From NCBI GenBank assembly GCA_024639455.1, contig JAHEIH010000004.1:161371-225370 (forward strand): a stretch of 64,000 bases of DNA, written 5' to 3'. Position 1 is the first letter of the stretch. Each line of letters begins with the position of its first letter. The notes beneath the pieces are model-generated. The model did not search any database. It worked only from the letters and a program-made list of their open reading frames with translations, and had not been told where the DNA came from. Origin of the DNA: Cellvibrionales bacterium. Its GTDB lineage: Bacteria > Pseudomonadota > Gammaproteobacteria > Pseudomonadales > JAHEIH01. Below are positions 5,384-25,263 of this stretch, in pieces. A program made the translations under genes and the position numbers.

Positions 5384-5848
5384 TTATGCTTTTTGAGCAG
5401 CGGATTTAATCGCTGCACGAATACGTGTGTAGGTACCGCAGCGACAAATGTTGCCACTCATGAATTGGTCGATATCGGCATCGCTAGGGTCGGGGATTTG
5501 TGCCAATAGTGCCGCTGCGGACATCATCTGGCCGGGCTGACAGTAGCCACACTGCGCTACGTCATGCTCAAGCCAGGCTTCTTGAACAGCGTGCATGCGG
5601 CCGGCGTCATAGGCAAGCCCTTCAATGGTGATGACACTAGCCTCTCCAACGGCAGAAACGGGCAGTTGGCAGGAGCGAACCGCGGCGCCATTAATGTGCA
5701 CGGTACACGCACCGCACGCGCCGGCACCGCAGCCAAACTTGGTGCCGACCATGTCGAGTGAATCACGTAATACCCACAGCATAGGAGTGTCTGGATCGAC
5801 GTCGACCGTGACCGCTTGTTGGTTAATGTTAAGGGTGTATTTAGCCAT
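5384..5848 (-). CDS. (2Fe-2S)-binding small subunit of the molybdenum hydroxylase
   Basis: Cluster motifs [12 protein letters not shown] and CGYCQPG...CRCGTY are typical of IorA/CoxS-type subunits. Confidence 0.9.
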
Positions 5849-5853
5849 GAGTA

Positions 5854-6429: not shown

Positions 6430-7418
6430 AAGTCTAGTACACCACTAATGGAACCGCCCTGTCGACCCGCCATTTTCGCTTGGGCTTCAGCCAAGATCGC
6501 CATGGCAATCGATTCGGGCAATGTGCCGCCGATGCTCAAGCCGGCGGGGCCAGCCAACACCTTAGGTTTGGCAATGCCCGCGGTGGATAACACTTGCTGC
6601 ATGCGGTGATCCGGCCCTAATAAGCCGATATAGCATGCTTCGGTCTTGCTTAGGCATTTCATTGCTAGCGCATCGAGGCTGACGCTATGGCTCATCACAA
6701 CCGCGATATCGACCGGCTGGCTGGCGAGGTAATGCTGCAAATGGGACTCATCGCCATCTAATAAATGGTGGACTTTTTGGAAGTGCTCCTGGCGGCCATG
6801 TGCCGGGCGTGGATCCCATAACGAAATATGCCAACCCAAGGTGTGGGCGATGTCTATCAATGGTCGTGCATCAATACCACCACCGGCCACGAAAAGGTGC
6901 GGTGGCGGTGTATAGGGGACGATCAAGGTATGTTCACGCATTTGCGCGCGGTCGGTATTAGGCGCGTTGCGAGTGACATGGTAGCTGTGTGTCGCGCAAG
7001 GAATACCGCTGCCAATCGCAAGGTCGTGATTGCCGCTAATTCGCTGCCGGAGATTGTTGAGCACCTCGGTGAGGCCAAGGTAGTGATTGTCTGCCTCGAC
7101 CACTTGCAGCATGATATCGACGGTGCCGCCACAGCCGATACCCATTTGAAAGGCCATATCGTCTTCGTCGTTGCCATCGTAGCGCACCAGAGCACTGCGC
7201 TTGTCATGCATCACTCGCCGTGCCTTGCTGTGCAGGTCAGATTCCAAACAGCCGCCACTGAGCATGCCTAGTTGCTGTCCCTCGCTACCAAACAACATCA
7301 ACGCCCCAGCTTTGCGGTAGGCCGAGCCAGCGGTGGAATACACCACGCCTAGCACCCATTGCGAACTATCGCGTTGTGGAGACCACTGGTTGAGAATGTC
7401 GAGTTGTTGATGGCTCAT
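6408..7418 (-). CDS. XdhC/CoxI-family molybdenum hydroxylase maturation factor
   Basis: XdhC-type segments GSAYRKAGALMLF...MLSGGCLE plus a Rossmann-like C-terminal half. The ORF is open to 7478, but the ATG at 7418 (MSHQQLD...) gives the usual N-terminal length. Confidence 0.75.
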   Translation of the reverse strand: MSHQQLDILNQWSPQRDSSQWVLGVVYSTAGSAYRKAGALMLFGSEGQQLGMLSGGCLESDLHSKARRVMHDKRSALVRYDGNDEDDMAFQMGIGCGGTVDIMLQVVEADNHYLGLTEVLNNLRQRISGNHDLAIGSGIPCATHSYHVTRNAPNTDRAQMREHTLIVPYTPPPHLFVAGGGIDARPLIDIAHTLGWHISLWDPRPAHGRQEHFQKVHHLLDGDESHLQHYLASQPVDIAVVMSHSVSLDALAMKCLSKTEACYIGLLGPDHRMQQVLSTAGIAKPKVLAGPAGLSIGGTLPESIAMAILAEAQAKMAGRQGGSISGVLDLCDLSHC

Positions 7419-7490
7419 GCACAATTCCAAAGTAAGAAACCCTATTGAAGGTGGTTCAATAGGGTCCCGCAATATCAAATGGCGACAAGC

Positions 7491-9839
7491 CTACCATTTG
7501 TCCTTTTGGTAGCGTTGGTTGCGGGCGTCTTTGATGACGCCAGACCAGTTCAAACCGAAGCCGAAGTCATAGTCGTTGCCCTTGCTGTCGACATAGGTCT
7601 CCATGTCCATCGGCATGTCTTCCTGTTGTTTTTCTACCGTGGCCATATCGATGGGCATCTGCATGGGCAGAAGACCGCTAGGCTCGGCGCGGCCGGTCAA
7701 CATGTCTTGGATGGCGCTGACTTGCACGCCAAATTCCAGCAATATGCCATCGACTAATGGCTCAACGTCGCCGAACACCATCGGGTTAGTCGCGCTGACC
7801 ACCATGATCACAGGCTTGTCGCCCATAGTTTTACGCAATGCCTGCAGCATCGGTAGGTCGGGGCGGCTATTAGATTTTGCCGTTTTCCCTTTGTAAGAGC
7901 GGTTGGTAATTTTGGGGTCAACGACGGGGTCGCCAGCGGCAATACTCTGTTCGCGTGCTTCGGTGGCGACGTAGTCGGCATGTTGCAAGCTGATGGGTAA
8001 GTAACCGTTGCCACCAGCGGCGCGGTCGCTACGCGAGTAAGGGTCGCTCACGGGGCTCTTCACGAAGGCCAGCGCAAAGTCAGCTTGAGTGGGATCATCG
8101 GTGACCACAAAATCCTTCGCCAACAAGTTGCGATCGATGGGATACATCTCGTGCGCAGGATCGGGGTAGCCGAAGAAGTTGAGCTTCTCGGGCACCGAAA
8201 TCTTGGGTACATACACCACTTTTTTGTCGGCGGGGAGCGGTAACACAGCATCGTTTTTCAACATTACGATCGATTTCAATTGCGCGTCGTAGCCTGCTGC
8301 CATGTACTCGGGTTTGCCGACCACTGCGGTGGTGGTTTCAGGATTCAAGTAGGGGTTTTCAAACAGGCCAACGCGGAAGATGTTTTTCAGCAAGCGCACC
8401 GCTGAGCGCTCGATGCGTGCGCGCGCGGCTTTTGTGCCATACTTTTCGCTCAGCACGTTGAAGGCGCCCAGCACAGGCCCCGCTTCATTGTTACCACCGA
8501 ATTGATCGAGGCCTGCTTCCAGTACTTTGACATGGCGCTCTACCACGTCCAGTGTTTCAACCCCCCAGTTTTTACCCGCAAAGACAGCGGGGTCTTTGCC
8601 TTCATCCCAGGTAATACCCCAGTCGGTGCATACTACACCGTCGTAGCCAAAGCGCTCGCGCAGCAGATCGGTAATGATGTACTTGCTGAAGCCGTTGCCG
8701 ACGTTTTCGCCGTACACGGTGTCTTGCTCATAGGAAATGGTGTAATAGGGCATTACCGCTGAGGCACTGCCCGTTTTGCCCTTCAATTTGAAGGCGCCTT
8801 CGACGAAGGGTTTCATGTGGGTTTCGAACTGACCGCCGGGATAGACGGCGAACTTACCGTACGCAAAGTGACCGTCGCGGCCGCCTTCTTCGGGACCACC
8901 GCTGGGCCAGTGTTTGACCATGGTGTTAACACTCTGCCAACCCCAACCATCGGCCAGCTCCTGTGATGCTGGGCTAGTTTGGAAACCGTCCACATACGCG
9001 CGCGCTAAATCGGTTGCCAGTGCAGGGTGGCCGCCAAAGGTGCCGTACAGACGGTTCCAACGCGGTTCTGTGGCCAAATCAATTTGTGGTGACAGCGCGG
9101 TAGTAATACCGAGGGCGCGGTATTCAATCGATGCGATGCGGCCAAATTCTTCGGTGATACTTGGATCAAAGGTGGCAGCCAAGCCAATTTGTTCGGGCCA
9201 CTGCGAAATGGTGCCGCCTGATCCCGCATTGTATTCCGCCTCTTTGCGCGCACCGTGACGAGGGTCGGAAGAATTGTTAGCGGGAATGCCAAAGCCAATG
9301 CTTTCGGCGAGGGCTTGCAGGTTGTTATTCCAGAGCGCGGCGACTTCGGGGCTTTCAACGTTGGTCAGTAGCACGTGGCGCAGGTGGTCTTCAGTAATGA
9401 ACTGCTTCTGGGCATCACTCAATGTGTGCGAAGGCAGTCCCGATTCGCTAAATGGCTTGCCGTTGTAGGTCGCGGCGAAATAGCCGCTGTCGGCCGCGGG
9501 TATCGCTTGGTGTTTGCTGTATAGCATCAACCCGGCAATCTCGGCTTCGCTGAGCATGCTAGCAAGATTCTTGGCGCGTGTGTCTGCGTCGAGGCGCCAG
9601 TCTTCGTATGGGTCGAGTTGGCCATTTTTGTTTAGATCTTTAAAGGGCAGCCCGTCGACTTCCAAAATACTCACGCCCGAGGTCTTCGAATAGGTCAGGA
9701 AGGGCTTGCCAGCGATAGACACTTGCATCACATCGCCGTGCATGGCGGTTTCGGTCCACGTGGGTGGCTTGTCGGCGCAGCCAACCAACGCACTACTGGC
9801 GACGGCGGCGGCAATCAGGGATTGCTTAAAGGTTTGCAT
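7491..9839 (-). CDS. glycoside hydrolase family 3 (beta-glucosidase-like) lipoprotein
   Basis: 782 aa. Lipobox ALVGC at the N-terminus. GH3-type segments (KHWPSGGPEEGGRDGH, VCTDWG). Confidence 0.85.
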   Translation of the reverse strand: MQTFKQSLIAAAVASSALVGCADKPPTWTETAMHGDVMQVSIAGKPFLTYSKTSGVSILEVDGLPFKDLNKNGQLDPYEDWRLDADTRAKNLASMLSEAEIAGLMLYSKHQAIPAADSGYFAATYNGKPFSESGLPSHTLSDAQKQFITEDHLRHVLLTNVESPEVAALWNNNLQALAESIGFGIPANNSSDPRHGARKEAEYNAGSGGTISQWPEQIGLAATFDPSITEEFGRIASIEYRALGITTALSPQIDLATEPRWNRLYGTFGGHPALATDLARAYVDGFQTSPASQELADGWGWQSVNTMVKHWPSGGPEEGGRDGHFAYGKFAVYPGGQFETHMKPFVEGAFKLKGKTGSASAVMPYYTISYEQDTVYGENVGNGFSKYIITDLLRERFGYDGVVCTDWGITWDEGKDPAVFAGKNWGVETLDVVERHVKVLEAGLDQFGGNNEAGPVLGAFNVLSEKYGTKAARARIERSAVRLLKNIFRVGLFENPYLNPETTTAVVGKPEYMAAGYDAQLKSIVMLKNDAVLPLPADKKVVYVPKISVPEKLNFFGYPDPAHEMYPIDRNLLAKDFVVTDDPTQADFALAFVKSPVSDPYSRSDRAAGGNGYLPISLQHADYVATEAREQSIAAGDPVVDPKITNRSYKGKTAKSNSRPDLPMLQALRKTMGDKPVIMVVSATNPMVFGDVEPLVDGILLEFGVQVSAIQDMLTGRAEPSGLLPMQMPIDMATVEKQQEDMPMDMETYVDSKGNDYDFGFGLNWSGVIKDARNQRYQKDKW

Positions 9840-10225: not shown

Positions 10226-10831
10226 TTAGGTCGGCCAAACGGTAGCCCAGTCGCGGTCACCCTCTTTGTAGGGGATGTCCTTGTAGGTGCCGGGGATTTC
10301 TACGTGCCGCAGGACCTCGGTGCCACCTTCTTTACTGGTGAAAAATCCAAAGATGATCAACTGCTTAAACAGCGTGAAATAGTGCGGCAGATCACCAAAA
10401 CCTTCACCTTCCCACACCACTTTCTCGCCCTTGTTATAGGCCAGTGCTTCGCTATCGATAGCGGTTAACAGTTCATTGCGTTCAGCGTCGCTGGCGTCGG
10501 TAAAGCTTTTGCCGAAGTTCAGTTGCGAACGCGTTTCTACATTGGCCATGCCCGCTTCAAAAAGGGCTTGCTGGGTGGGGGTGTAGCAATCGCGGATCAT
10601 GCCAATAACAAAGGCGGGTAGGCCGGCATCCTTGGCTCCGGGGGTGTCGGTGCGTGGAATGACGGTTTCACAAATCTCTTCGATCAGTGCCACTTGCTGT
10701 GCGTTGAAGCCCGAATCTGCCACGCTGGTCGCCGCCGCGGGTGGCTTCCAAATGGCGTAGGCGGGGTTGTAAACAAACGCGGCGCCAGTGGCTACCGCGA
10801 TGGCTTGGAGTAATTCACGACGGTTCATCAT
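10226..10831 (-). CDS. Tat-signal small subunit (gluconate 2-dehydrogenase subunit 3-like) of a GMC dehydrogenase
   Basis: Twin-arginine N-terminus MMNRRELLQAIAVATGAAF, about 200 aa. Its start overlaps the stop of the GMC gene (TAATG). Confidence 0.75.
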   Translation of the reverse strand: MMNRRELLQAIAVATGAAFVYNPAYAIWKPPAAATSVADSGFNAQQVALIEEICETVIPRTDTPGAKDAGLPAFVIGMIRDCYTPTQQALFEAGMANVETRSQLNFGKSFTDASDAERNELLTAIDSEALAYNKGEKVVWEGEGFGDLPHYFTLFKQLIIFGFFTSKEGGTEVLRHVEIPGTYKDIPYKEGDRDWATVWPT

Positions 10832-12522
10832 TACAGGTTACCTCGCTTCAGTTCTTCTACCGCGAACTCTGCGGCGCGGGCGGTTAATGCCATGTAGGTC
10901 AAGGAGGGGTTCACACACGACGCTGAGGTCATGCACGCGCCGTCGGTGACGAATACATTGGGGGCATCCCACACTTGGTTGTGCTGGTTCAATACCGATG
11001 AATTGGGATCTCGACCCATGCGTGCGGTGCCCATTTCGTGGATGCCCTTACCCATGTGGTAGGTGGTTTCCCATGACTTAGCATTTTTCAGGCCGATGCT
11101 GTCGAACATCTCAACGATGTCTTCTTTCATAGCCTTGCGCATTTTGATTTCGTTATCGCGAATCTTAGCGTCCATTTCTAGCACTGGCAGGCCCCAGGCA
11201 TCGCGGGTCTCAAAGTTGAGCGACACCTTGTTGCGGTGATCGGGCAGGATTTCGCCGAAGCCTGTGGCGTTAATGGTCCACTTGCCGGGCTCGGCCAAGC
11301 TCGCTTTGAGGCCGGCGCCAATGCCGAGTTCGCTGCTGTCGCGCATGAAGCCTTCACGGCCCGCACGACCCTGGAAGCCGAAGCCGCGCAGGAAGTCGCG
11401 CTTGTCGCTGCCCCAGTTGGCAAAGCGTGGGATATAGAAACCGTTGGGGCGACGACCGTAGGTGTGCTGATCCAGGAAACCATCCACTTCCGCCGAACCG
11501 CCTAGCATGTAGTGGTGGTCCATGACGTTATGGCCGAGTTCACCGGAGCTCGAGCCCAAACCATTGTCCCAAACGTCACGCGCTGAGTTCATTAGAATCC
11601 AGGTTGAGTTGAGGGTCGAGGCGTTCAAGAACACGATCTTGCTATTAAAGGTGATTGTTTCGTGCGTTTCTGCATCAATCACTTCTACGCCTGTTACGCG
11701 TTGGGTGTTCTTATCGTAGATTAGCTCTTTAACGATAGACATGGGGCGAACTGTGAGGTTGCCGGTCTTCATTGCCGCAGGCAGGGTGGTTGATTGCGTA
11801 CTGAAATAGCCACCAAAGGGACAGCCGGTCCAGCATTTGTCGCGGTGCTGACACTTGCCGCGGCCCTGATCGGGACGGTTTTCGGTGGCATGTGCGCAAC
11901 GACCAATAATCAGGTGGCGCTCCCCTTTGTATTGTTTCTTGATGCGAGCGGCCACGTCACGCTCTACCACATTCAAGTTCATGGGGGGCAAAAAGTCGCT
12001 GTCGGGCAATACATCTAGGCCATCGTTGTTACCCGAAATGCCGGCAAAGCGCTCCACGTAGCCGTACCACTTCTCGAGATCTTCGTAGCGAATGGGCCAG
12101 TCGACGGCGATACCTTCTTTACCATTGGCCATGAAGTCTTCGCGGTTCAAACGGTAGGTTTGACGACCCCACAGCAGTGAACGACCCCCCATTTGGTAGG
12201 CGCGAAACCATTGAAAAGGCTCTTTTTCAACGTAGGGTGCCGTTTGATGGCTTGCCCAAGCGCCCATGGTGGGCTCATTGAAGGGGTAGCCTGTGCCGCG
12301 TGCCATATTTGGCTCAGTCGCTTTGGCTTCGAGGCTGGGGCGCCCGTGGTGTGGGTAGTCCCACAGGTTTTTTTGCATGTTGACATAGTCTTTCAGGTGC
12401 TGGACGTCGCCACCGCGCTCCAGCATCAACACTTTAAGGCCTTTTTCGGTCAGTTCTTTGGCTGCCCAGCCGCCGCTGATGCCAGAGCCGACGACGATTG
12501 CGTCATAGGTATTGTTTGCCAT
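10831..12522 (-). CDS. GMC-family FAD-dependent oxidoreductase (sugar/glycoside dehydrogenase candidate), no own signal peptide
   Basis: FAD fold YDAIVVGSGISGGWAAKELTEKGLKVLMLERG, 563 aa, GMC C-terminal domain. Confidence 0.85.
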   Translation of the reverse strand: MANNTYDAIVVGSGISGGWAAKELTEKGLKVLMLERGGDVQHLKDYVNMQKNLWDYPHHGRPSLEAKATEPNMARGTGYPFNEPTMGAWASHQTAPYVEKEPFQWFRAYQMGGRSLLWGRQTYRLNREDFMANGKEGIAVDWPIRYEDLEKWYGYVERFAGISGNNDGLDVLPDSDFLPPMNLNVVERDVAARIKKQYKGERHLIIGRCAHATENRPDQGRGKCQHRDKCWTGCPFGGYFSTQSTTLPAAMKTGNLTVRPMSIVKELIYDKNTQRVTGVEVIDAETHETITFNSKIVFLNASTLNSTWILMNSARDVWDNGLGSSSGELGHNVMDHHYMLGGSAEVDGFLDQHTYGRRPNGFYIPRFANWGSDKRDFLRGFGFQGRAGREGFMRDSSELGIGAGLKASLAEPGKWTINATGFGEILPDHRNKVSLNFETRDAWGLPVLEMDAKIRDNEIKMRKAMKEDIVEMFDSIGLKNAKSWETTYHMGKGIHEMGTARMGRDPNSSVLNQHNQVWDAPNVFVTDGACMTSASCVNPSLTYMALTARAAEFAVEELKRGNL

Positions 12523-13930: not shown

Positions 13931-15412
13931 TTACATTGGCGCGGGGCAGTATTGAGCGAGGAAGTCGGCATGGCTTGGCATTGCCGCTAAATTCCCTTTT
14001 ACCTTGTCGCGGATAGCGTGCATTTGTTGCAGTAACTGCTGAGGTGGCAGCAGTGCGGCACCACTGTGGTGGTGTCCGGGCACAATACCTTGGCCCATCA
14101 TTACCTGTAACCACGAATCCACTCGGAACAGGTTTACGTTGTCGGCGGTGACATAACCATTCGCCGCAAATATATCCATGCGGTGACGCAAGCTATCAGG
14201 GGCATCCATTTCACGATAGAAATCCCACATGGGGCTATCGTTACGGGCGGTTTGTTTATAGTGCAGGATAATGAAGTCGCGGATCGCCTCTAACTCTACT
14301 TTGGTATCCATATTGTAGCGTTCAGCGGCCAATGCCATGTTGCCGTCAAATGGCATCAAACGCATCAGGCGCATGATGCTGGTGGTGATCAAGTGGATGG
14401 AGGTAGATTCCAAGGGTTCTAGGAAGCCACTTGAGAGACCAATAGCCACACAGTTCTTGTGCCAGCATTCGCGGCGTTTGCCGGTGGTGAAACGAATTTG
14501 TCTCGGCTCTGTGATCATGGGTCCCTGCAGGTGATCCACGAGGGTTTGACGCGCTTCATCATCGCTTGCGAACTGGCTGCTGTAAACAATGCCGTTGCCG
14601 GTTCGGGTTTGCAGCGGAATACGCCACTGCCAACCAATAGGGTGGGCAATGGCGCGAGTGAAGGGCGGTGGCGCAACGGTGCTTTCAGTTTGAACGGCCT
14701 GGGCGCTGTTGGCGGCCAGCCAATGGCTCCAATCGTCGTAAGCAACGCCAAGGGTTTCGCCGATTAATAGCCCTCTAAATCCGGTGCAGTCGACAAATAT
14801 ATCACCTTCTATTACCTGGCCGCTGTCGAGGTGAATTGCACGGATGTGGCCGTTGTCGGGATCAAGCGCAACCTGTTGGATGATACCTTCGCAACGAGTG
14901 GCGCCCAATGCTTCCGATTTTTGTCTCAAGTAGCCCGCATAGGCGGTGGCGTTGAGGTGGTAGGCATAGTTGACTGGGGTGTTGTTGGCCATCAAAGAGA
15001 ATTTGCCAGCTTCAGCTGCGCGTAACTCTAAACAAAAGTCGCCTAAATCCCCTTTATAACCCTGTTTCACAGCCTCCATCCAGTAGGTGTGGAACTCCGT
15101 CATCCATGTGCCTTGGCCGATCACGCCAAAGGAGTGGATGTAGCTGTCGTCTACCTTTCCCCAGTTGTCAAAGTAAATGCCCAGCTTGAAGGTGGCCTGG
15201 GTGGCCTGCATGAACTCGCGCTCATCGATTTCTAGCATTTTATGGAAGGTTTTCATGGTCGGTATGGTGGCTTCGCCCACACCGACTGTGCCGATCTGGT
15301 CAGATTCGACCAGCGTGACATCCACCACTTTTCCAAGGCGTTTAATAATGGCGTAGGCGGCCAGCCATCCGGCAGTGCCACCGCCAGCGATGACGAGACG
15401 AGTTTTGTTCAT
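13931..15412 (-). CDS. flavin-dependent halogenase family protein (tryptophan-halogenase-like)
   Basis: GGGTAGW (GxGxxG), GVGEATIPTMK, WQWRIP (WxWxIP) and FLEPLESTS are all present. Confidence 0.85.
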   Translation of the reverse strand: MNKTRLVIAGGGTAGWLAAYAIIKRLGKVVDVTLVESDQIGTVGVGEATIPTMKTFHKMLEIDEREFMQATQATFKLGIYFDNWGKVDDSYIHSFGVIGQGTWMTEFHTYWMEAVKQGYKGDLGDFCLELRAAEAGKFSLMANNTPVNYAYHLNATAYAGYLRQKSEALGATRCEGIIQQVALDPDNGHIRAIHLDSGQVIEGDIFVDCTGFRGLLIGETLGVAYDDWSHWLAANSAQAVQTESTVAPPPFTRAIAHPIGWQWRIPLQTRTGNGIVYSSQFASDDEARQTLVDHLQGPMITEPRQIRFTTGKRRECWHKNCVAIGLSSGFLEPLESTSIHLITTSIMRLMRLMPFDGNMALAAERYNMDTKVELEAIRDFIILHYKQTARNDSPMWDFYREMDAPDSLRHRMDIFAANGYVTADNVNLFRVDSWLQVMMGQGIVPGHHHSGAALLPPQQLLQQMHAIRDKVKGNLAAMPSHADFLAQYCPAPM

Positions 15413-15413
15413 G

Positions 15414-16436
15414 CTAAATATTTAAACCTTGTTTAACCATGTTGCGGAGACGGCGAGATTTTTGATCATCCATAGGCGCAAGAACCCCGTGTACAACTTC
15501 TGGTAGGTGTTGGCGCGGATGTTCGGCATCGCCAAACACGTAGTATTCAAAGAATTCTCGCCAAGCCTGTTTTTCAGCAGGTGAACGATCGCGCAGCGAG
15601 AGAATACCGTGCATCAGTAAGTCGGTAGGGTTACCCATGAAGCGGGGCGCGTTGACCCACCAGTAATTGACCATCACGTTGAAGGTACTCAGTGCATCGA
15701 CTTCGTGCCACCAAAGGCTAGGATAATACACCGCATCACCGGGTTCCATGTCAACTACCACGGCGTTGGCAAGTGCTTCTTCAAGCCCCGGAAAGCGCTC
15801 ATGGTCAGGATTTTTAATATCCGCCATGGTTACCGGCTGGCCGCCTGGGGTCATGCCCCAAGGGCCAGGGTAAATATTCTTGATTTGATTCGGTGGGAAC
15901 AACGTAAAACGACGCTTGCCCATCACACAGCAGGCCAGATTTTGCGGGATGTCGTAGTGGGCCAGCGCGCGTGATTCAGTGCCAATCCAGATTTTTGCCA
16001 CAAATGGCGAGGTTTCGAATACTGGGTGGTTGAACACGAGATCGTTCTCGTCGCGCATGCCGGGAAACGACTGGTCGACCACCAGCGAGTTCATGTAGAA
16101 ATAGTCGTGCTCTTCCTGCCCCTGGCACGCCTCAATCAAATCGAGCACGTTGGTCAGCTTGTCATTGACGCCATCGTAGTTAAAGCCTGACATATCTTCG
16201 TTGTAACTAAAGCAACCGCCCATGTTTGGGCCGCCGCGAAAGTATAGGATAGGTTTTTGGTCGTAAAAGCGTGTCAGTTCCGCCTTCATTGCTTGAAACG
16301 ATTGTCGGCCTTTATTAACCAGCGGCCAATCTTTCACCAGGCCCTTTAAAAGGATGGGCTCGGGGCTAGCGAACAGTGTTTCCCAGGGAATGCTGTCCGG
16401 GGTGACGTTCTCAAAAATTTTGGGCGTGCCTGACAT
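15414..16436 (-). CDS. cupin-like / JmjC-type (Cupin_8) protein
   Basis: 340 aa. Candidate HxD...H facial triad (ALAHYD ... WWHEV). It occupies the usual position between SapC and the halogenase. Confidence 0.7.
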   Translation of the reverse strand: MSGTPKIFENVTPDSIPWETLFASPEPILLKGLVKDWPLVNKGRQSFQAMKAELTRFYDQKPILYFRGGPNMGGCFSYNEDMSGFNYDGVNDKLTNVLDLIEACQGQEEHDYFYMNSLVVDQSFPGMRDENDLVFNHPVFETSPFVAKIWIGTESRALAHYDIPQNLACCVMGKRRFTLFPPNQIKNIYPGPWGMTPGGQPVTMADIKNPDHERFPGLEEALANAVVVDMEPGDAVYYPSLWWHEVDALSTFNVMVNYWWVNAPRFMGNPTDLLMHGILSLRDRSPAEKQAWREFFEYYVFGDAEHPRQHLPEVVHGVLAPMDDQKSRRLRNMVKQGLNI

Positions 16437-16443
16437 ATCTGCT

Positions 16444-17169
16444 CTAATGCGCGTTTTGTAGTGCGTTCTTTTTGTCGATCAAACGCTGGAAATTACCTAG
16501 CGATGATAACAAGAAATACACCTGAGCCAAGATACCCATGTCGCGCAATTTGACCAATTGTTCACCGCTCAGTTGCGACAATTTCTCTTGATTGATACTC
16601 ATGTAGTCTTTAAAGCCGAAGTGTTGCTGTTCGCTCAGCGACAGATTGATATCAACGGGCTCAAGCAATTCCATTTCTTCAAGAGTGGCATAGAACACTT
16701 CATCGTTTCTATGACCAGAATCAATCACTGACAAGACTTTCTTTACAAATTGTAAGTAGGGGGATTCACCGCCGAATTCGAGGAAAATTTCAGTGCCGCT
16801 ATCAGAGATGCGGGGGTCTTTTTCGTCGACCATGATCATGGGGTTTTGGGTTTTTACGCCATCGACTTCTTGTTCTTGATAGCCGATAGAAAACGGACCG
16901 CGAGCCAATGTGGCTGGCACGGTAGTACAAGTCCAACGACCGTTCTCTAAAAATAAGTTTTCATCTTTTTGCAGCCCCATAATGGCGTGCGCGCACAATT
17001 TCCCGTTTTCGGGGTTCTTGGCGATAAGAATGGGGAATTCTTTGTGCAAATCCGCAATTTCTGTGCTGTAGGCCAGTGCGCGGTTGATGTTGTCGCCGTA
17101 TTCTGTGCCAGGCTTTGTGTCCACTTTCAAATGTTGGTGGGTTTCGTTATGGAGAATGACTAAAGACAT
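16444..17169 (-). CDS. SapC-family protein
   Basis: 241 aa immediately downstream of the TonB-dependent receptor. The N-terminus ...LNxxxHxxLKV... is the pattern I associate with SapC-family proteins of receptor loci. Confidence 0.65.
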   Translation of the reverse strand: MSLVILHNETHQHLKVDTKPGTEYGDNINRALAYSTEIADLHKEFPILIAKNPENGKLCAHAIMGLQKDENLFLENGRWTCTTVPATLARGPFSIGYQEQEVDGVKTQNPMIMVDEKDPRISDSGTEIFLEFGGESPYLQFVKKVLSVIDSGHRNDEVFYATLEEMELLEPVDINLSLSEQQHFGFKDYMSINQEKLSQLSGEQLVKLRDMGILAQVYFLLSSLGNFQRLIDKKNALQNAH

Positions 17170-17184
17170 AAAATTTCAAACCTT

Positions 17185-17225
17185 AAAAAATAAAAAAGGG
17201 CTTTCACCGCGAGATGAAAGCCCTT
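17185..17225 (-). terminator. rho-independent terminator between the receptor and SapC genes
   Basis: Perfect 11-bp stem AAGGGCTTTCA / TGAAAGCCCTT (17196-17225), with an A-rich run at 17185-17195 (a U-run on the minus strand). Confidence 0.85.
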
Positions 17226-17240
17226 GTCTCTAACTAGCTA

Positions 17241-20200
17241 TTAGAAGCTGTAACGAGCTGACAACATGTAACGTGGATCAGCTTCGCCGTTCCAGTACTG
17301 CATACCTTCAGTACGGCCGTAGATCTTCTGGCCTTCGCCAGTCACGTTAATGCCATCCAGGCTTACGACGATGTCATCAGTTACGTTGTAAGTGATGTTC
17401 AAGTCGATCTGGCTGAACTCTTTAACGAATACGGGTGAACCAGCTTGGCCAGCGTATGCGGTTGAGTTCAGGAAGGTGTCACGCCAGTTGTATGCAACAC
17501 GTGCAGACAGCGCGTCATCTTCGTACATCAGCACCAAGTTAGCAGAATCAGACAGGCCTAACAAGGCGAACTGAGAAATGCTTGGGTCAGCCGATACATC
17601 GTAACCGATGTCGCCGTCAACCATGGTAGCGTTAGCGCTAACACCGAAGCCAGTGTCACCGAAGAAGTGCTGTACAGCGAATTCCCAACCGTCAATAGTC
17701 GCAGCTTGGTTGTTTACAGGCTGTGAAGTATTGAAGGTGTACAAAGGATCGCTCGCTCCGGGAGTGATGTCGTAATCAGCTTCTACCTGAGTAGTGTTGA
17801 TCGCTGAGAACTGAGTTGCAGTCAGAGCGTCGACTGAACCTACACCTGCCCAGTTAGCGTTGCCGTCACCGAAGTTCTGGATCAGCGCTGACATGGTGAA
17901 CATGTTGTCTTCGTTGACGTTCAGACCCAGTGCTTGCAGTTTAGCCAGAGCTTGACCAGACAAGCTGCCAGCTGTTGCCGCACCCGCGTCACGCAGGCCG
18001 AACAGAGACTGAGGAACTACTGCAGTACCCACGAAGTTTTCTACTTTCTTGTAGAAGTAGCCCGCCGACACGTAGCTAGCTTCGCCGTAGTAGTATTCCA
18101 ACGACAGGTCGAAGTTGTCAGACTCGAGAGGATCCAGTTTAGCGGTACCTTTGCTTGCAGTGGGGTAGCCACCCAAGTAAGTCAGAGTACCACCGGTAGA
18201 ACCGATACCCGTCTTAACGAACATGTCGCTGTAGCCTGGACGTGCGATTGACTTGCCGTAAGAAGCGCGCAGCTTCATTTCGTCAGTCAGGTCAACAGAA
18301 ACGTCCAAGTTTGGCAGGATGTTGCTGTAAGAGTAGTCTTCATCCAGTACTGCAGGAGACGCGCCAGCGTAGCTCTGTGCGAAGTCGTTGTTTGATTCCC
18401 AAATAATTGCAGTGGGAGACACTTGGACAGTCGCGGAGTTTACGTCGGTTTCTTCGTAGCGTACGCCGAAGTTCACTTGAACTGGCTTGCCAGAGAACTC
18501 AGTTTCCCACTTACCGTTCACGTAGACTGACGTAATGTCTTCGCTGATCAGGTTGTCGTTGCCGCCTGATGAGGTCAGATTATTCAACGAGAAGTTGGGG
18601 TAGATGTCGTTCTGCGCATCCATGTATTGAATGAACGAGTACGCGTCAACGGTGAAGGCTTGTTGACCCAAGATGGTCATGACGTAGCCATCAGGTGCAA
18701 TGCCAGTAGCGTTGGGGAAACCGTTGAACTGCAGATCGCCAAATGCACAAGTACCACAGATTTCAGTGATTTGATTGTCGTCAGGGATGTCGCCGTTACC
18801 CACGCCCCAACCACCGAGGTAGTCCGTAGTGCCTGAGTTTACTTGCGCCATTTCAGTTGACAGGAAGCCTGCACCGAAATCAACAGTCAGGCTGTCATCT
18901 ACTTCATAAGTACCGTCCAGGTTGAACTGGTCGATAGAAGATTTCTGCATTGAGCTGTTGGTGATGAAGGTTTGGGTGTTGATGTCGCCACGGTCGTAAA
19001 CGCCGTTGCCGTTACCCCAAGCGCCGTGTGAACCGTCAGCATCTACGTAGCCTTCGCTTTCCAGTACACCTACTGATGCAGTGGGAACACCGTCGCCGTA
19101 GTAAGCGGCCTGCCAGCCAGAACCTGAAGAAGCGATGTTGATGCGAGTACCTGCCCAGCCGTTAGGACCGTTACCACCAGACTCTGCTTCAGATGAAGCG
19201 GCATCTAAGCTGACGGTCAGTCGATCGCTGAACTCGTGACGGATGTTGATACCGAAAGACTGCATGGTGTCTTTTGACGCATCGTAGCGGTTGGCGTAGA
19301 AGTAGTCTTTACCTTCGTTAGGCACGCCGTCAGTGGTAGGCAGACGGTGCAATTCAACCAGTGCCAAAGGTGTGGCTACAATGGGGTTGCCGTCGAACTC
19401 AACGTATGAGTAGTTGCGGTTGAACCAAATACCAGGAACAACACCCGTTTGCTCTTGAGTGGTTTGGGTGTACAGCACGTCAGCAGTAATGGTAGTGCGG
19501 TCGCTTGGTGCGAACTGCATAGTGACCATGGCATTTGAACGCTCACGGTTCAGATCCATGATGTTCATGCCTATGTTCCAAGGAATCGCTACCAACGAAC
19601 CAGCAGCTGGCTCGTTAACGCGCTCAGCGTTTGCCCAAGGGCCCAGAGTAGGATCGTAGTCCAGGTACTGGTAACCAGAAACGTTTACACCGGCTGCGCC
19701 AGAGCTACGCTCTTGGTATGAACCAAACACGCTGATACCGAAAGTGTTGTCTTCGTTAGCCATGCTGAACAAGCCGCTGACTTCAGGCGTGATGTCCTTG
19801 TTGCCAGACTGGTCGTTAACCAATTTAACGCCAACAGACGCTTGGTCACCCGCTTCCAGAGGACGGTTGGTTTGAACGTTGATAGTCGCGCCCATACCAC
19901 CGCTAACAACTTTAGCGTTAGCTGTTTTGTAAACTTGAATACCTTGTACGCCTTCAGACGCCAGGTTTGAGAAGTCAAACGAACGAGAAGTACCCAGTGC
20001 GCCAGCTTCGTCAGAGTTACCAGTGACGTTGGCAACGTTTGCAGAGGGCATTTGACGACCGTTCAAGGTCACCATGTTGTAGCCGCCACCGAAACCACGA
20101 ACGGTTACTTGTGAGCCTTCGCCGTTTACACGGTCAATCGAAACACCGGTAATACGCTGCAGAGATTCTGCCAAGTTGGTGTCAGGGAATTTACCCATGT

Positions 20201-20387
20201 CTTCTGCAGAAATTGCATCAACAACACCTGATGAATCGCGTTTTACGTCCATTGCACGCATCAATGAACCGCGAATACCTGTAACTACAACTTCTTCAAC
20301 AGTGTTTTCTTGTGCAACAGCTTGGCCAGCAGCCAAAGTTGAAGTCACGCCAGCAATGACGAGAGAAAGTTTTGTTCTTCGAAACAT
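17241..20387 (-). CDS. TonB-dependent outer-membrane receptor (glycan-type, 1048 aa)
   Basis: Signal peptide, TonB box/plug EEVVVTGIRGSL...DAISAEDMGKFPDTNLAESLQRITGV, C-terminal ...RYSF. Confidence 0.9.
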   Translation of the reverse strand: MFRRTKLSLVIAGVTSTLAAGQAVAQENTVEEVVVTGIRGSLMRAMDVKRDSSGVVDAISAEDMGKFPDTNLAESLQRITGVSIDRVNGEGSQVTVRGFGGGYNMVTLNGRQMPSANVANVTGNSDEAGALGTSRSFDFSNLASEGVQGIQVYKTANAKVVSGGMGATINVQTNRPLEAGDQASVGVKLVNDQSGNKDITPEVSGLFSMANEDNTFGISVFGSYQERSSGAAGVNVSGYQYLDYDPTLGPWANAERVNEPAAGSLVAIPWNIGMNIMDLNRERSNAMVTMQFAPSDRTTITADVLYTQTTQEQTGVVPGIWFNRNYSYVEFDGNPIVATPLALVELHRLPTTDGVPNEGKDYFYANRYDASKDTMQSFGINIRHEFSDRLTVSLDAASSEAESGGNGPNGWAGTRINIASSGSGWQAAYYGDGVPTASVGVLESEGYVDADGSHGAWGNGNGVYDRGDINTQTFITNSSMQKSSIDQFNLDGTYEVDDSLTVDFGAGFLSTEMAQVNSGTTDYLGGWGVGNGDIPDDNQITEICGTCAFGDLQFNGFPNATGIAPDGYVMTILGQQAFTVDAYSFIQYMDAQNDIYPNFSLNNLTSSGGNDNLISEDITSVYVNGKWETEFSGKPVQVNFGVRYEETDVNSATVQVSPTAIIWESNNDFAQSYAGASPAVLDEDYSYSNILPNLDVSVDLTDEMKLRASYGKSIARPGYSDMFVKTGIGSTGGTLTYLGGYPTASKGTAKLDPLESDNFDLSLEYYYGEASYVSAGYFYKKVENFVGTAVVPQSLFGLRDAGAATAGSLSGQALAKLQALGLNVNEDNMFTMSALIQNFGDGNANWAGVGSVDALTATQFSAINTTQVEADYDITPGASDPLYTFNTSQPVNNQAATIDGWEFAVQHFFGDTGFGVSANATMVDGDIGYDVSADPSISQFALLGLSDSANLVLMYEDDALSARVAYNWRDTFLNSTAYAGQAGSPVFVKEFSQIDLNITYNVTDDIVVSLDGINVTGEGQKIYGRTEGMQYWNGEADPRYMLSARYSF

Positions 20388-20513
20388 AATGTTATCTCCG
20401 AATGGTTTTATTTAGAGTTATATGCATGCCTAAGACATGGCTGATTTATTCGCCGCAGCGAAATGCTCTGAATGCACTGAGTCCAATTTGGCCATAATGC
20501 ATCAGCGCACAAA

Positions 20514-20527
20514 TGTAATCGTTTCCA
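20514..20527. promoter_or_regulatory. LacI-type operator TGTAATCGTTTCCA
   Basis: One mismatch. It lies 127 bp upstream of the receptor start. Confidence 0.55.
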
Positions 20528-20634
20528 TGATGGCTGTAAAGATATTGTTGCAGTGTTTTGTATGGTTAGGTGATGGGTTTTTTAAATGTCTTTAAAAACA
20601 ATTGCTTAAAGGTTTTTTGCGAGAGAGGTTTAAT

Positions 20635-20648
20635 TGAAAACGATTACT
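20635..20648. promoter_or_regulatory. LacI-type operator-like site TGAAAACGATTACT
   Basis: Two mismatches. It lies in the same intergenic region, about 250 bp upstream of the receptor start. Confidence 0.4.
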
Positions 20649-20703: not shown

Positions 20704-21942
20704 TTACGAGCGATAGGGTTCTCGGCCAAATCCTTGTACTGGAATGCCCAGCTCAGGGAGCAGTTTTTGTTGGATTGCATACATCGCCGCCGCTGACTCA
20801 TCGATGGCGCGACAGAAGTCGATCGATGCTTGAAGCAATGGGCCAAGTTGAGCCTTGTCTTGAATGCGCGCCGGCGGGTATTCGTGCTCGACAACCAGGT
20901 AGGTGTTAGCCACGTCGATATCCAGCAGTTCGCGTGCCGCCAGTTGGTGATCTAGCCAGTCAACGGTACGGTTTTGCAGGTAGGCCAGTGGGTCGTGTTT
21001 GGCGGTGCCCGGCAGTTCGTGCTCGCAGGTCGCCACTTGCTTCTTCCATGCGTTCAAGTGGTCAGCAGGGTTGTTCGAGGGTTGGCCGTTGATCCAGTCG
21101 CCGCGTTCCATGCTTTGCCCGCCCCAGCCCCAGGCTGAAATACCCTTAGCGTCGGTGACTTGACCTTTAACGTGAAATCCGGCGATCAAGAAGTTGTAGC
21201 CTTCATCCTTTAGGTATTGGAACATCGAGCGAGTATCCTGACCCATTAACACGGCGTGTGACGGGTCGTAGTGAATACGGAATTGGTCGCCAACACCATG
21301 CTTTTCACAGATGCGGTGCAAGGCAATCCAAGGTCCTGGTGCGTAAGCGATGTTGTTGTGCCATAGGTCAGTGGTGTTCCAGCCGGGCATGGGGCATTGC
21401 TCGACGCGATAGGTAAGACCGCGAGCTTTGGCTTCTTTCAATAATGGAATGAATTCCGCTTCAAACATCTCGAGGTTTTGGTCCATTGACAGGTCGGGGT
21501 TGCGGCCGACAAAGCCACACACCGCGTCGGTGCCCATCATGACGGCGGCGTCAAACACGCGAAGCATGAACTCTTTTTTCTTCTCGCGGTTACCGCGGTC
21601 AGCTACCAGCATGTTGTCGAAGTATGCCAGGTCAGACAGGCCGACACCGGTGCTGTGCATGGCGGCCTGAACGCGCTTGGCGCGTTCTGCATTAAAGGGT
21701 TGTCGCAGATCCAAGGTGTTGGCCACAGGATCCAACATCGCCTCGGCGGGGATATCAGATTCGCTGGGGTGTAGTGCAGCTGCCAATTGAATGTAAGGAC
21801 AGTTCATGTCCGCTGAAAACTGCAGCCACTCCTCAATCGCTAAATCGGGATCTGGGTCGCGCTTTTCGCGCGGAGTGAGTTCTTGTAGCGCCGCTGTCAG
21901 GACGCTCAACTTCATGTGCTGTGGATCGTATGAAATACTCAT
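20704..21942 (-). CDS. xylose-isomerase-like TIM-barrel protein (sugar phosphate isomerase/epimerase superfamily), cytoplasmic, 412 aa
   Basis: Segments such as [14 protein letters not shown] and GFHVKG resemble AP_endonuc_2/TIM-barrel metal sites. No signal peptide. Confidence 0.6.
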
Positions 21943-21951: not shown

Positions 21952-23178
21952 CTATTTTGCGTCGCTGCCAAGGGTTTCGTTTTTAAATACCAGTGCGAAC
22001 AGAACGAATACAGCCGCCGCGAAACCAGCGGGAATCAGCCAAATAGTCTGCCAGTCGTGGCTGCCGCCAACAGTGGTGTAGGCGTCGACGATTTTGCCCG
22101 AAGCGGCAAAGCCGATAAGCATACCGATGCCGTAGGTCGCCAGGGTGATCATGCCTTGAGCGGCACTCTTAATTTTTTCGCCGGCTTTATTGTCAGTGTA
22201 GATTTGGCCGCTGACAAAGAAGAAGTCGTAGCAAATGCCGTGCAGAGCGATACCCATCAACAACAGGAACATGCTGTTGTTGGGGTCGCCGTAGGCGAAG
22301 CTGACATAGCGAACAACCCACGCCAGCATGCCGAATAATAAGGTGGCTTTAATGCCGAAGCGCTTTAAAAAGACAGGCAGCAGCAGCATGAACAGTACTT
22401 CTGACACCTGGCCAATGGTCATTTTGCCAGTGGCATTTTCCACCCCAATTTCAGTTAGGAAGGGGTTAGCGTAGGAATAGTAGAACGCTAGCGGGATGCA
22501 GATCAGTACCGAGGCCAGGAAAAATACCGCGTAGTTACGGTCTTTCAGTAAGGCCAGTGCTTCCAGGCCTAGGATGTCGCTGATGCTCACCGCTTGGCCG
22601 CGCGCTGCAGGTGGCGTGGCAGGCAGGGTGAAGCTGTAGAAGCCAAGTACCACAGACACAATCGCGGTCATGGCGAAGGTGTTGCGCAGCATGCCGTTGG
22701 CAATGCTGCCTTGAGAGTCCCAAGAGAATACATAGCTGATCACCAAGCCGGCAACGATCCAGCCGATGGTGCCCCACAAGCGAATCTTACCGAACTCGCT
22801 GGCGGGGTCTTTCAATTGGTTGAACGATACCGAGTTCACAAGTGCCAGTGTCGGCATGTAGCACAGCATGTAGACGAACAGGTAGGGATAGAAGCTGTTG
22901 AAGTCTGACGAGGTGAAGAGCAGGTACATCAGACCTGCACCGACTAGGTGTAGCACACCTAAAATGCGCTCGGCGTTGAAGTAGCGGTCAGCAATCAGGC
23001 CGATAATAAAGGGCGCGATAATCGCACCCCAGGACTGTGTGCCGTAGGCCATGCCGATTTCGCCGCCGTTGGCTTGCAGGGTGCTGCCCATGAAGGTGCC
23101 CAGGGTAACGAACCACGCGCCCCAAACAAAAAATTGCATAAACATCATTGCGCACAAGCGCACAGTAATCGCGTTCAT
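21952..23178 (-). CDS. MFS transporter, nucleoside:H+ symporter (NHS)-like
   Basis: 12-TM profile. The N-terminus VRLCAMMFMQFFVWGAWFVTLGTFM is typical of NupG/XapB/YegT-like permeases. Confidence 0.7.
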   Translation of the reverse strand: MNAITVRLCAMMFMQFFVWGAWFVTLGTFMGSTLQANGGEIGMAYGTQSWGAIIAPFIIGLIADRYFNAERILGVLHLVGAGLMYLLFTSSDFNSFYPYLFVYMLCYMPTLALVNSVSFNQLKDPASEFGKIRLWGTIGWIVAGLVISYVFSWDSQGSIANGMLRNTFAMTAIVSVVLGFYSFTLPATPPAARGQAVSISDILGLEALALLKDRNYAVFFLASVLICIPLAFYYSYANPFLTEIGVENATGKMTIGQVSEVLFMLLLPVFLKRFGIKATLLFGMLAWVVRYVSFAYGDPNNSMFLLLMGIALHGICYDFFFVSGQIYTDNKAGEKIKSAAQGMITLATYGIGMLIGFAASGKIVDAYTTVGGSHDWQTIWLIPAGFAAAVFVLFALVFKNETLGSDAK

Positions 23179-23204: not shown

Positions 23205-24344
<1,140 letters not shown>

Positions 24345-24399
24345 TAGTATTTACCAACTGGTTTTTTGTTTATATTTAGGTCAGTATTTAAACCCAAAA

Positions 24400-24413
24400 T
24401 GTAAACGTTTGCA
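24400..24413. promoter_or_regulatory. LacI-type operator TGTAAACGTTTGCA in a 79-bp divergent intergenic region
   Basis: One mismatch to the consensus. It lies between the Gfo/Idh/MocA start (24344) and the Tat TIM-barrel start (24424). Confidence 0.6.
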
Positions 24414-24423
24414 TAGGTGCAAT

Positions 24424-25263
24424 ATGATAAATATTACAACTTCCCGCCGAGGTCTTTTGAAATCCGCCGCTGCATTTGCAGCTCTCGCTTCCGTTCCCAG
24501 CGTGTTTGCGCACGGCGATCACGCCCGTGTCGGTTTACAGCTATACACGGTGCGCGACCTCGCCAAAGAGGATTTTTTAGGTGCGCTAGAACAAGTGGCG
24601 GCGATTGGCTACAAGGACATGGAATTCGCCGGTTACTTCGGTCACTCGGTGCAAACTCTGCGTCGTCACCTCGATGCGTTGGGTATGGCCGCTCCCTCGG
24701 CACACATTCCTTTGAACGCGTTTCAAGATAATACAGACAAAGTCATTGAAGACGCCCTGGTGATGGGCCATCACTACTTGGTCATGCCCTACCTGACCCA
24801 AGAGCAACGCACAGGCGGTATTGAAACCTATAAACGTCTGGCTGAATTTCTCAACGGCGTGGGTGAAAAATGCCGCGCTAGCGGCATCATGTTGGCCTAC
24901 CACAACCACGACTTTGAATTCCAAGCCGAAGATGGCCAGTTGCCCTACGACGTATTGTTAGAGGTGCCTGCCGACAATATGCTGATGGAGATGGATCTTT
25001 ATTGGACCATTAAGGCAGGCTACGATCCCGTGGCATACTTCGCTAAACACCCTGGTCGCTTCCCGCTGTGGCACGTGAAAGACATGGACGCTGAGGGTAA
25101 CTTTGCTGATGTCGGTACCGGCACCATCGATTTTGAGCGTATCTTTGCACAGCGACAATTAGCGGGTTTGCAGCACGGCTTTGTCGAGCGTGATCGCACC
25201 GACAACTTAGCGCGCACATTGACCCGCAGCTTTGAGGGTGCCAAGCGCTTCATTGAAGGTTAA
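24424..25263 (+). CDS. Tat-exported xylose-isomerase-like TIM-barrel protein (paralogue 1)
   Basis: Twin-arginine signal MINITTSRRGLLKSAAAFAALASVPSVFA. Core segments LQLYTVRD, YHNHDFEF, EMDLYW and WHVKD. The ORF-track start at 24292 was rejected because it overlaps the neighbouring gene and the operator. Confidence 0.8.
   Translation: MINITTSRRGLLKSAAAFAALASVPSVFAHGDHARVGLQLYTVRDLAKEDFLGALEQVAAIGYKDMEFAGYFGHSVQTLRRHLDALGMAAPSAHIPLNAFQDNTDKVIEDALVMGHHYLVMPYLTQEQRTGGIETYKRLAEFLNGVGEKCRASGIMLAYHNHDFEFQAEDGQLPYDVLLEVPADNMLMEMDLYWTIKAGYDPVAYFAKHPGRFPLWHVKDMDAEGNFADVGTGTIDFERIFAQRQLAGLQHGFVERDRTDNLARTLTRSFEGAKRFIEG

Follow-up and report, generated by a model that had tools for sequence, protein, structure and literature searches.

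Described relatives and recurrence of the four-gene unit

The closest described system is the gene neighbourhood reported by Iyer et al. 2010 (NAR 38:5261), in which a TonB-dependent receptor, SapC, a JOR-JmjC protein and a tryptophan halogenase are encoded together in Alpha- and Gammaproteobacteria (PMC2938197). In that work one to three halogenases were identified per neighbourhood, the halogenase lysine and the HxD/E signature were found intact, SapC was predicted to be an enzyme, and a siderophore-like receptor with a halogenated siderophore-like product was proposed (PMC2938197). The DNA analysed here is a window of 64,000 nt from contig JAHEIH010000004.1 of an uncultured gammaproteobacterium, and its positions 13931-20387 hold a unit of four genes from the identical four families; the optional second, classical 2-oxoglutarate (2OG) oxygenase of some published loci corresponds to DUF6445 in the loci described below. 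The window copy is an ordinary member of this known and still unexplained module, a clean and well-regulated example and no new kind of system. It departs from the published reading in that its receptor is of the carbohydrate type TIGR01782, apparently LacI-controlled and without a Fur box, within a glycoside catabolic locus. Full-text searches of the literature on what the module does, covering fitness and proteomic data too, returned only the 2010 prediction and in vitro halogenase papers, and the sequence-only reading of this DNA was right in calling the role of the module unexplained.

The described enzymes nearest to the halogenase are BrvH and Xcc4156 (the latter of Xanthomonas campestris B100), both crystallised 'indole' flavin-dependent halogenases preferring bromide; BrvH and the Xanthomonas enzymes brominate indole derivatives in vitro and not free tryptophan (PMC5945002, PMC7336383). 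The active site of BrvH is open and solvent-exposed, and larger substrates were suggested by its authors (PMC5945002). A text search of PMC5945002 and PMC7336383 found no mention of a TonB-receptor gene context.

The larger open reading frames (ORFs) of the window were scanned against Pfam. The unit and the regulator gene next to it are as follows:

17241-20387, minus strand: TonB-dependent receptor, 1048 aa; Pfam Plug (PF07715) and TonB_dep_Rec barrel (PF00593); TIGR01782
16444-17169, minus strand: SapC-family protein, 241 aa; PF07277, 198 bits, model positions 1-220 of 220
15414-16436, minus strand: JmjC/Cupin_8 Fe(II)/2-oxoglutarate-type oxygenase (the cupin), 340 aa; PF13621, 217 bits
13931-15412, minus strand: flavin-dependent halogenase of the BrvH/Xcc4156 type, 493 aa; Trp_halogenase PF04820, 590 bits
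12924-13928, plus strand: LacI-family regulator, Pfam LacI and Peripla_BP; convergent with the halogenase gene

The four co-directional ORFs run in the order receptor, SapC, cupin, halogenase, with exactly the coordinates and strand that had been read from the sequence alone and with Pfam support. Receptor gene and sapC are separated by 71 nt, sapC and the cupin gene by 7 nt and the cupin and halogenase genes by 1 nt, the last two values being those expected from the 1-7 nt spacing claimed for SapC, cupin and halogenase. The stop codons of the halogenase gene and the convergent LacI gene lie 2 nt apart. By sequence inspection a signal peptide is present only in the receptor; SapC, the cupin and the halogenase are taken to be cytoplasmic because they have none and their sequences begin directly with folded domains.

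Related loci were collected in two scans, 160 in total. The first comprised one degenerate SapC pattern run against species-representative genomes, from whose 412 SapC relatives the 80 closest loci were analysed; the second started from a divergent SapC seed (type B) and comprises 80 further loci. Every first-set locus with enough upstream sequence (76/76) has the four genes on the same strand in the order receptor, SapC, cupin, halogenase. The second set, from sphingomonads, Caulobacterales, Colwellia, Cellvibrio, Massilia and Aquabacterium, shows two fixed orders, receptor, halogenase, SapC, DUF6445 and receptor, halogenase, SapC, cupin, halogenase. The receptor gene is upstream in 69/74 of these loci, a halogenase gene is adjacent in 74/80 and an oxygenase gene in 65/80, SapC standing alone in only 3/80. 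The 160 loci, which belong to Alpha-, Beta- and Gammaproteobacteria, show three fixed orders in all, and SapC is nearly always flanked by receptor, halogenase and oxygenase genes, which bears out the claim of a recurrent module. The co-directional adjacency of the four families that characterises the neighbourhood of Iyer et al. 2010 was found in the window and recurs among the 160 related loci. The four-gene unit is real, non-random and catalytically intact. The three fixed architectures and the conserved terminator after the receptor gene are additions of this analysis.

The genes around the module are much less constant. Neighbours in the first set comprise DUF6445, ECF sigma/FecR, a GntP permease, a gluconokinase-like kinase, LacI and GH3-ExoP, and those in the second set LacI, GH16, GH3, a sugar transporter and glucokinase, as in ordinary beta-glucan loci. 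In Caulobacter the neighbours are a polysaccharide deacetylase and an esterase, and the Cellvibrio japonicus module (L081) has no sugar genes nearby. Regulators beside the modules vary among the LacI, ECF/FecR, ROK and AraC types, and comparison of the related loci shows no conserved module gene for an inner-membrane transporter, a scaffold-building enzyme, an exporter or a flavin reductase. Because the neighbours differ so widely and the receptor gene is the sole constant partner, the cassette follows the receptor and not the chemistry of the cargo. The enzymes are also unlikely to act on the sugar cargo itself, since flavin halogenases need an electron-rich aromatic carbon, which is absent from these cargos.

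The content of the module is variable, with one to three halogenases, with JmjC, DUF6445 or both as oxygenase, and sometimes with an S-adenosylmethionine (SAM)-dependent methyltransferase inside. DUF6445 is a family that we take to be 2OG-oxygenase-like. The methyltransferase is TPMT-like (thiopurine/halide) and was identified in loci L018, L025, L048, L057, L065 and L068, mostly of the Steroidobacteraceae type; in L025 it lies between the two halogenase genes. The closest relative of the window unit, with the same synteny, is in a metagenome-assembled 'uncultured Pseudomonadales' genome (L058). The window itself holds a single module: a 493-aa ORF at 29939-31420 and a 1187-aa ORF, considered as parts of a second one, are Sde182 nucleoside-hydrolase-like and GH78, the latter being no receptor.

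Active sites of the halogenase and the cupin, and the SapC family

The halogenase is matched in the PDB by Xcc4156 (6Y1W, E 1.7e-174), by 9LUQ and by BrvH (6FRL, E 4e-132), and by the true tryptophan halogenases at about 1e-77. The matches to BrvH and Xcc4156 are full-length (444 and 584 bits, respectively), and both share with the window protein the catalytic lysine and glutamate, GxGxxG and WxWxIP. It has the ATIPxx and HSFG-type motifs found in the non-tryptophan 'group C' (PMC8269204), and its short C-terminal region, as in BrvH and Xcc4156, would leave an open substrate site.

The strings GGGTAGW, GVGEATIPTMK, WQWRIP and LEPLES, singled out in the sequence-only reading, are all in the protein. 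GxGxxG is formed by G10, G12 and G15 and is kept in all complete relatives, WQWRIP comprises residues 261-266 (W261xW263xI265P266), and the catalytic glutamate is E335, the second E of LEPLES, equivalent to BrvH E349. In PrnA and RebH the catalytic lysine is K79, and the catalytic glutamate of PrnA is E346. That reading was right on the GxGxxG, WxWxIP and LEPLES regions, which are present and conserved, and wrong on the catalytic lysine, which it had placed in GVGEATIPTMK. The lysine of that segment is K54, a position held by Val in Xcc4156, by Arg, Cys or Gln in most relatives and mostly by Arg. The catalytic lysine is K76, in ATQATFKLGI(YF), and it aligns with BrvH K83, which the K83A mutagenesis primer locates in ATQATC-K-LGIRF (PMC5945002).

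K76, E332, E335, W261 and W263 are invariant in 73 first-copy and 49 second-copy halogenases (122/122), while overall identity across the halogenase and cupin relative sets falls to 30-50%. This invariance despite low identity argues for working enzymes and not relics, as had been supposed from the motifs, the catalytic residues being 100% conserved in the 73 and 49 halogenases and in 79 cupins; by the same alignments catalysis is under strong purifying selection. By analogy to the BrvH/Xcc homologues, for which the reaction is shown, the window halogenase would catalyse FADH2-, O2- and halide-dependent arene halogenation. Two tandem halogenase genes were identified in 47 of the 80 closest loci (the first set), the second one being paralogous. 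The second type keeps the catalytic lysine and glutamate and both tryptophans, with WxWxI[A/S] in place of WxWxIP; the window holds the first type only.

The cupin contains the two strings AHYD and WWHEV, from which an HxD...H iron triad had been proposed. The triad, H160-x-D162...H244, aligns residue for residue with H199/D201/H279 of FIH and is conserved in 79/79 relatives, in which R175 and R176 are also invariant. R175 sits where FIH has the 2OG-binding K214, and is a plausible stand-in for it in binding the 2OG C5 carboxylate; FIH T196 aligns to a gap. The AlphaFold2 (AF2) model of the cupin has a predicted local distance difference test (pLDDT) value of 84.5, and its best Foldseek match is FIH (E 1e-18, TM 0.63), followed by TYW5, JMJD5 and JMJD7. 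With these proteins it has in common the double-stranded beta-helix and a C-terminal helical region. From FIH it differs in being bacterial, in having Arg175 for Lys214, and in identity, which is only about 20%. FIH, JMJD5 and JMJD7 modify proteins and TYW5 modifies tRNA. The cupin family exceeds 7,585 clusters at 90% identity.

SapC is a widespread family (4,814 clusters of 50% identity at E <= 1e-3 and 3,167 at E <= 1e-10) with a confidently predicted fold and no solved relative, a point added by this analysis. Its AF2 model has a pLDDT of 93 and a predicted TM-score (pTM) of 0.87, and Foldseek against the PDB (best E 0.25) and against BFVD (best E 0.013, TM about 0.1) found nothing significant; a sequence search found no SapC relatives in the PDB. 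The invariant polar residues in the SapC alignment are H11, E37, E70, N71, D115 and Y138, which look like a catalytic or ligand-binding site. At 5934-8735 of locus L126 a SapC gene without receptor or halogenase lies directly 3' of the gene for an FG-GAP/ASPIC-UnbV protein, in an operon of the sugar-acid type with an enolase-superfamily dehydratase, an FAA hydrolase, an SDR and an aldehyde dehydrogenase. SapC would thus be able to work outside the cassette.

Receptor, terminator and the surrounding glycoside locus

The receptor scores 606 bits against the TIGR01782 'TonB-Xanth-Caul' model (cut-off 310) with model positions 1-868 covered, which places it by sequence in the carbohydrate-type class and not in the siderophore type. 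By eye, its N-terminus has a signal peptide, MFRRTKLSLVIAGVTSTLAAGQAVA/QE, followed by a TonB-box-like EEVVVTG, and the barrel is of the 22-strand type with a C-terminal Phe (...RYSF). The elements identified around its gene are as follows:

17186-17225, minus strand: intrinsic-terminator-like hairpin (AAGGGCTTTCA...TGAAAGCCCTT) with T-tract, between the receptor gene and sapC
20512-20540, minus strand: sigma-70-like promoter TTTACA-17-TACATT upstream of the receptor gene, by consensus match alone
20514-20527: candidate LacI-type operator TGTAATCGTTTCCA, half-palindromes; overlaps the -10-like hexamer of the receptor promoter
20635-20648: second candidate LacI-type operator TGAAAACGATTACT, half-palindromes; upstream of the receptor gene

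The 71-nt spacer is nearly all hairpin. The hairpin itself (17196-17225) has a perfect stem of 11 bp, or 13 pairs with its extension, with TTTTTTATTTTTT after it and a free energy of -21 kcal/mol (z = -3.1 against shuffled sequences). The 11-bp-stem terminator that had been claimed between the receptor and the enzyme genes is present, and a similar hairpin with a T-run was identified 3' of the receptor gene in 58/78 related loci. Because the terminator is real and comparable hairpins recur, an excess of receptor over sub-stoichiometric enzymes is plausible. The 'operon' may in fact be two transcription units.

The operator motif is a 14-bp palindrome close to TGTAAACGTTTACA, with 10 matches in the window against 1.5 expected. 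Seven of the 10 are in intergenic DNA, which makes up 7.5% of the window, and six of these seven are inside the glycoside locus: two 5' of the receptor gene, two between the GMC gene and the LacI gene, one between the Gfo and TIM-barrel genes and one 5' of the Tat-signal TIM-barrel gene. The sugar-type LacI operator proposed earlier is therefore supported, the motif being enriched in the window and common to the neighbouring catabolic genes. The best match to a Fur box in the window (11/19) is at background level. An extra operator-like palindrome, TGTAATCGGTTACA, is found at 2306-2319 upstream of an ORF without Pfam match (2428-3000), and adjoins a molybdopterin oxidoreductase/XdhC/MobA group (3135-7478); the LacI-type regulon may reach beyond the glycoside locus.

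The other genes of the locus, assigned by Pfam, are as follows:

7491-9839, minus strand: GH3 glycosidase
10226-10831, minus strand: twin-arginine translocation (Tat)-type small subunit
10831-12522, minus strand: glucose-methanol-choline (GMC) flavoprotein; operator-like sites at 12615 and 12809
20704-21942: TIM-barrel 'sugar phosphate isomerase'
21952-23178: NupG-like major facilitator superfamily (MFS) transporter
23205-24344: Gfo/Idh/MocA reductase
24424 (probable start)-25263, plus strand: Tat-signal TIM barrel; operator-like site at 24400
25323-28886: GH78 rhamnosidase
28943-29935: second Tat-signal TIM barrel; operator-like site at 28906

The locus also encodes the Sde182-like protein and a carboxylesterase, and has two LacI regulators in all. 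The xylose-isomerase-like TIM barrels of the window are three, two of them with Tat signals. In its longest form the ORF at 24292-25263 on the plus strand overlaps the divergent Gfo gene by 52 nt; the ATG at 24424 is the likely true start and gives a twin-arginine signal (MINITTSRRGLLKSAAAFAALASVPSVFA), so that this protein would be periplasmic, like the one at 28943-29935.

Two described systems are similar to this locus. CUT loci (carbohydrate utilization loci with TonB-dependent receptors), described by Blanvillain et al. 2007, bring together genes for the receptor, for transport across the inner membrane, for glycosidases and for a sugar regulator (PMC1790865). With its receptor, NupG-like MFS transporter, GH3, GH78, LacI and common operator motif, the window locus falls within this definition and within that of proteobacterial polysaccharide utilization loci. 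The definition does not contain the SapC-oxygenase-halogenase cassette, and the word 'halogenase' occurs zero times in PMC1790865. The oxidative deglycosylation pathway comprises a glycoside 3-dehydrogenase, an O-/C-glycoside beta-eliminase, a hydratase and a Gfo reductase, and acts on aromatic natural-product glycosides (PMC10628242). The same gene set, complete in its periplasmic and cytoplasmic parts, flanks the module, including the Tat small subunit and two to three TIM-barrel proteins, and the group formed by the GMC flavoprotein, the Tat-type small subunit and GH3 resembles glycoside 3-dehydrogenase; unlike in PMC10628242 the set is combined with a TonB receptor, GH78 and GH3, the likeness being one of neighbouring genes alone. 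From this gene content the locus is probably one for rhamnoglucosides with aromatic aglycones. GMC and small-subunit genes within 10 kb of the module were identified in 13/80 first-set loci.

Among the larger ORFs of the window the Pfam scan found no nonribosomal peptide synthetase (NRPS), polyketide synthase (PKS), tryptophan-pathway or flavin reductase gene, as had been stated before for NRPS/PKS and the tryptophan pathway. Farther along, 35656-60123 is a large CoA-dependent catabolic cluster with an acyl-CoA synthetase, four acyl-CoA dehydrogenases, two family-III CoA-transferases, two HpcH/HpaI-type lyases, three SnoaL-like proteins, a MaoC dehydratase, an enoyl-CoA hydratase, a thiolase and MmgE/PrpD. 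At 60001-64000 the G+C content falls to 0.445 from about 0.55, the ORFs at 61279-62127 and 62127-63653 have no Pfam match, and the segment may be foreign DNA.

Possible substrates of the cassette

We infer, tentatively and with low confidence, a receptor-centred modification system with a bulky substrate, of protein or peptide size, that would be modified in the cytoplasm. The unit would be a LacI-repressed outer-membrane import unit in which the receptor is transcribed first and the three cytoplasmic proteins follow behind a leaky terminator. As is known for its family, the halogenase would form hypohalous acid from O2, a halide (probably bromide) and FADH2 supplied by a host flavin reductase, and this would be delivered via K76/E335 to an electron-rich aromatic carbon other than that of free tryptophan. 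The cupin, again from knowledge of its family, would hydroxylate the substrate with Fe(II), 2-oxoglutarate and O2, and SapC would be a third enzyme or an adaptor. The likeliest candidate substrate would be the precursor of the co-encoded receptor, modified ahead of its export by Sec, or else a protein that partners the receptor, the enzymes being required only in catalytic amounts relative to the receptor.

The reasons for this proposal are several. The linkage to the receptor gene is obligatory (76/76 and 69/74 loci), pairwise identities of the four proteins rise and fall together (rho 0.80-0.87), and the module has no scaffold enzyme, exporter or conserved inner-membrane transporter. The surroundings of the modules are variable and mostly non-aromatic, the catalytic residues are invariant, and of the four proteins only the receptor has a signal peptide. 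The nearest structures of the cupin all modify macromolecules, and the active site of BrvH is open. The terminator, present in 58/78 loci, would make for much receptor and little enzyme, as fits an abundant protein substrate and enzymes in catalytic amounts. Cytoplasmic modifying enzymes encoded beside the outer-membrane or secreted protein that they modify before export are represented by Aah/AIDA-I and HMW1C/HMW1. The logic is the same as in the proposal, but those enzymes are glycosyltransferases and the comparison is an analogy only; we know of no hydroxylase or halogenase example of such pre-export modification.

Several points weigh against it. There is no direct evidence for any substrate, and to our knowledge no natural case of a flavin halogenase that halogenates a full-length protein has been demonstrated. 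Since Sec exports the receptor in unfolded form, its modification would have to precede or accompany export. The co-variation of the four proteins is a pattern equally expected from plain vertical inheritance of an operon. The variable enzyme complement looks more like small-molecule tailoring. The invariant His, Glu, Asp and Tyr of SapC suggest an enzyme, and SapC is found alone in 3/80 loci, once in the sugar-acid operon. When 67 module receptors were aligned with 5 receptors from outside the module and 3 from variant modules, no Trp- or Asn-containing target motif specific to the module emerged convincingly; many positions differ, the module set being about one orthologous group and the controls too few. 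One candidate, W663-x-x-x-N667-D-F, is module-specific in type A and is not kept in type B, and was rejected. In its most specific form, in which the co-encoded receptor, or another protein, would be both hydroxylated and halogenated by the trio while still in the cytoplasm and not yet exported, the proposal is unlikely.

The published prediction for the neighbourhood (PMC2938197) is the origin of the chief alternative, in which the enzymes hydroxylate and halogenate an amino-acid- or indole-derived compound that is released and then re-imported or sensed via the receptor. The modular and variable enzymes (a second halogenase in 47/80 loci, DUF6445, the TPMT-like methyltransferase), the bromination of free indole derivatives by BrvH and the Xcc halogenases in vitro and the enzyme-like invariant residues of SapC are all in its favour, but the module has no conserved NRPS, PKS, ligase or exporter and the window contains none, the receptor is of the TIGR01782 carbohydrate type and not of the siderophore type, its LacI-type operators are shared with the glycoside catabolic genes, without a Fur box, and the neighbours are glycosidases and sugar transporters. 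We consider it unlikely, and its siderophore/NRPS-type version was downgraded on the lack of a Fur box, NRPS or PKS and on the receptor class. In loci like this one the substrate could instead derive from the cargo: a phenolic rhamnoglucoside would be imported and deglycosylated, its sugars being removed by GH78, GH3 and the periplasmic 3-dehydrogenase/beta-eliminase route, and the electron-rich aglycone would reach the cytoplasm, to be hydroxylated and halogenated there for detoxification or catabolism. A phenolic aglycone is chemically possible as substrate here; phenols and indoles are the chemical class attacked by flavin halogenases, and the window has a full oxidative deglycosylation set together with GH78, GH3 and a carboxylesterase under a common operator motif, the pathway being one for aromatic natural-product glycosides (PMC10628242) and its GMC and small-subunit genes being within 10 kb in 13/80 related loci. 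Most modules, however, are in non-aromatic glucan loci or in none, so that a cassette whose active sites are invariant cannot have this as its general role; the periplasm would be where the aglycone is freed, whereas the enzymes are cytoplasmic, halogenating a nutrient is costly and raises its toxicity, and the enzyme genes are behind a terminator. This explanation is quite improbable.

With FIH, an O2- and 2OG-dependent regulator of a transcription factor, as the closest structure of the cupin, and with the enzymes apparently expressed at a low level behind the terminator, the oxygenase, SapC and the halogenase could also respond to O2, 2-oxoglutarate or halide by modifying a regulator or a component of translation, which would adjust how much receptor is produced. 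No regulator gene is conserved with the module, and one dedicated enzyme set per receptor paralogue fits a general sensor poorly, so that such a sensing role has very little probability. Nothing was found in favour of the enzyme genes being decaying passengers or having a non-catalytic structural role; the catalytic Lys, Glu and Trp, GxGxxG and the cupin H/D/H and Arg are invariant in 122 halogenases and 79 cupins at 30-60% overall identity, the genes have intact reading frames with tight spacing, and to judge from this conservation the idea is effectively refuted. The probability left by the receptor-centred proposal and these four alternatives belongs to something else.

Other roles were considered and set aside. 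A precursor peptide like those of ribosomally synthesized and post-translationally modified peptides (RiPPs) has no place in the 71-nt spacer, filled by the terminator, or between the halogenase and LacI stops 2 nt apart, and the sole candidate upstream is a 19-codon ORF without Trp. The PADLOC models for anti-phage defence gave no match to SapC, the cupin or the halogenase at E <= 0.01, and PHROGs merely show that phages have homologous halogenases and DUF6445-like proteins; a defence or phage link was rejected.

The cassette is very common and is found in nutrient-uptake loci of the chief glycan degraders among marine, soil and plant-associated Proteobacteria, and the contribution of the window is comparative evidence that it follows the receptor and not the cargo. 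The halogenases of the module are usually annotated as 'tryptophan halogenase' and counted in metagenome surveys among the genes of secondary metabolism or of the organohalogen cycle. If they serve outer-membrane transport, those counts are misread and the models of TonB-dependent uptake miss a step. The native substrate of the BrvH/Xcc4156 class, once known, would also explain its poor activity in vitro, a matter of interest for biocatalysis. If modification of the receptor were true, thousands of proteobacterial nutrient receptors would carry enzymatic halogenation of Trp or Tyr and side-chain hydroxylation, SapC would be an adaptor or an enzyme with a new fold, and a flavin halogenase would for the first time be seen to halogenate a full-length protein in nature, which would add a new layer to the maturation of outer-membrane proteins.

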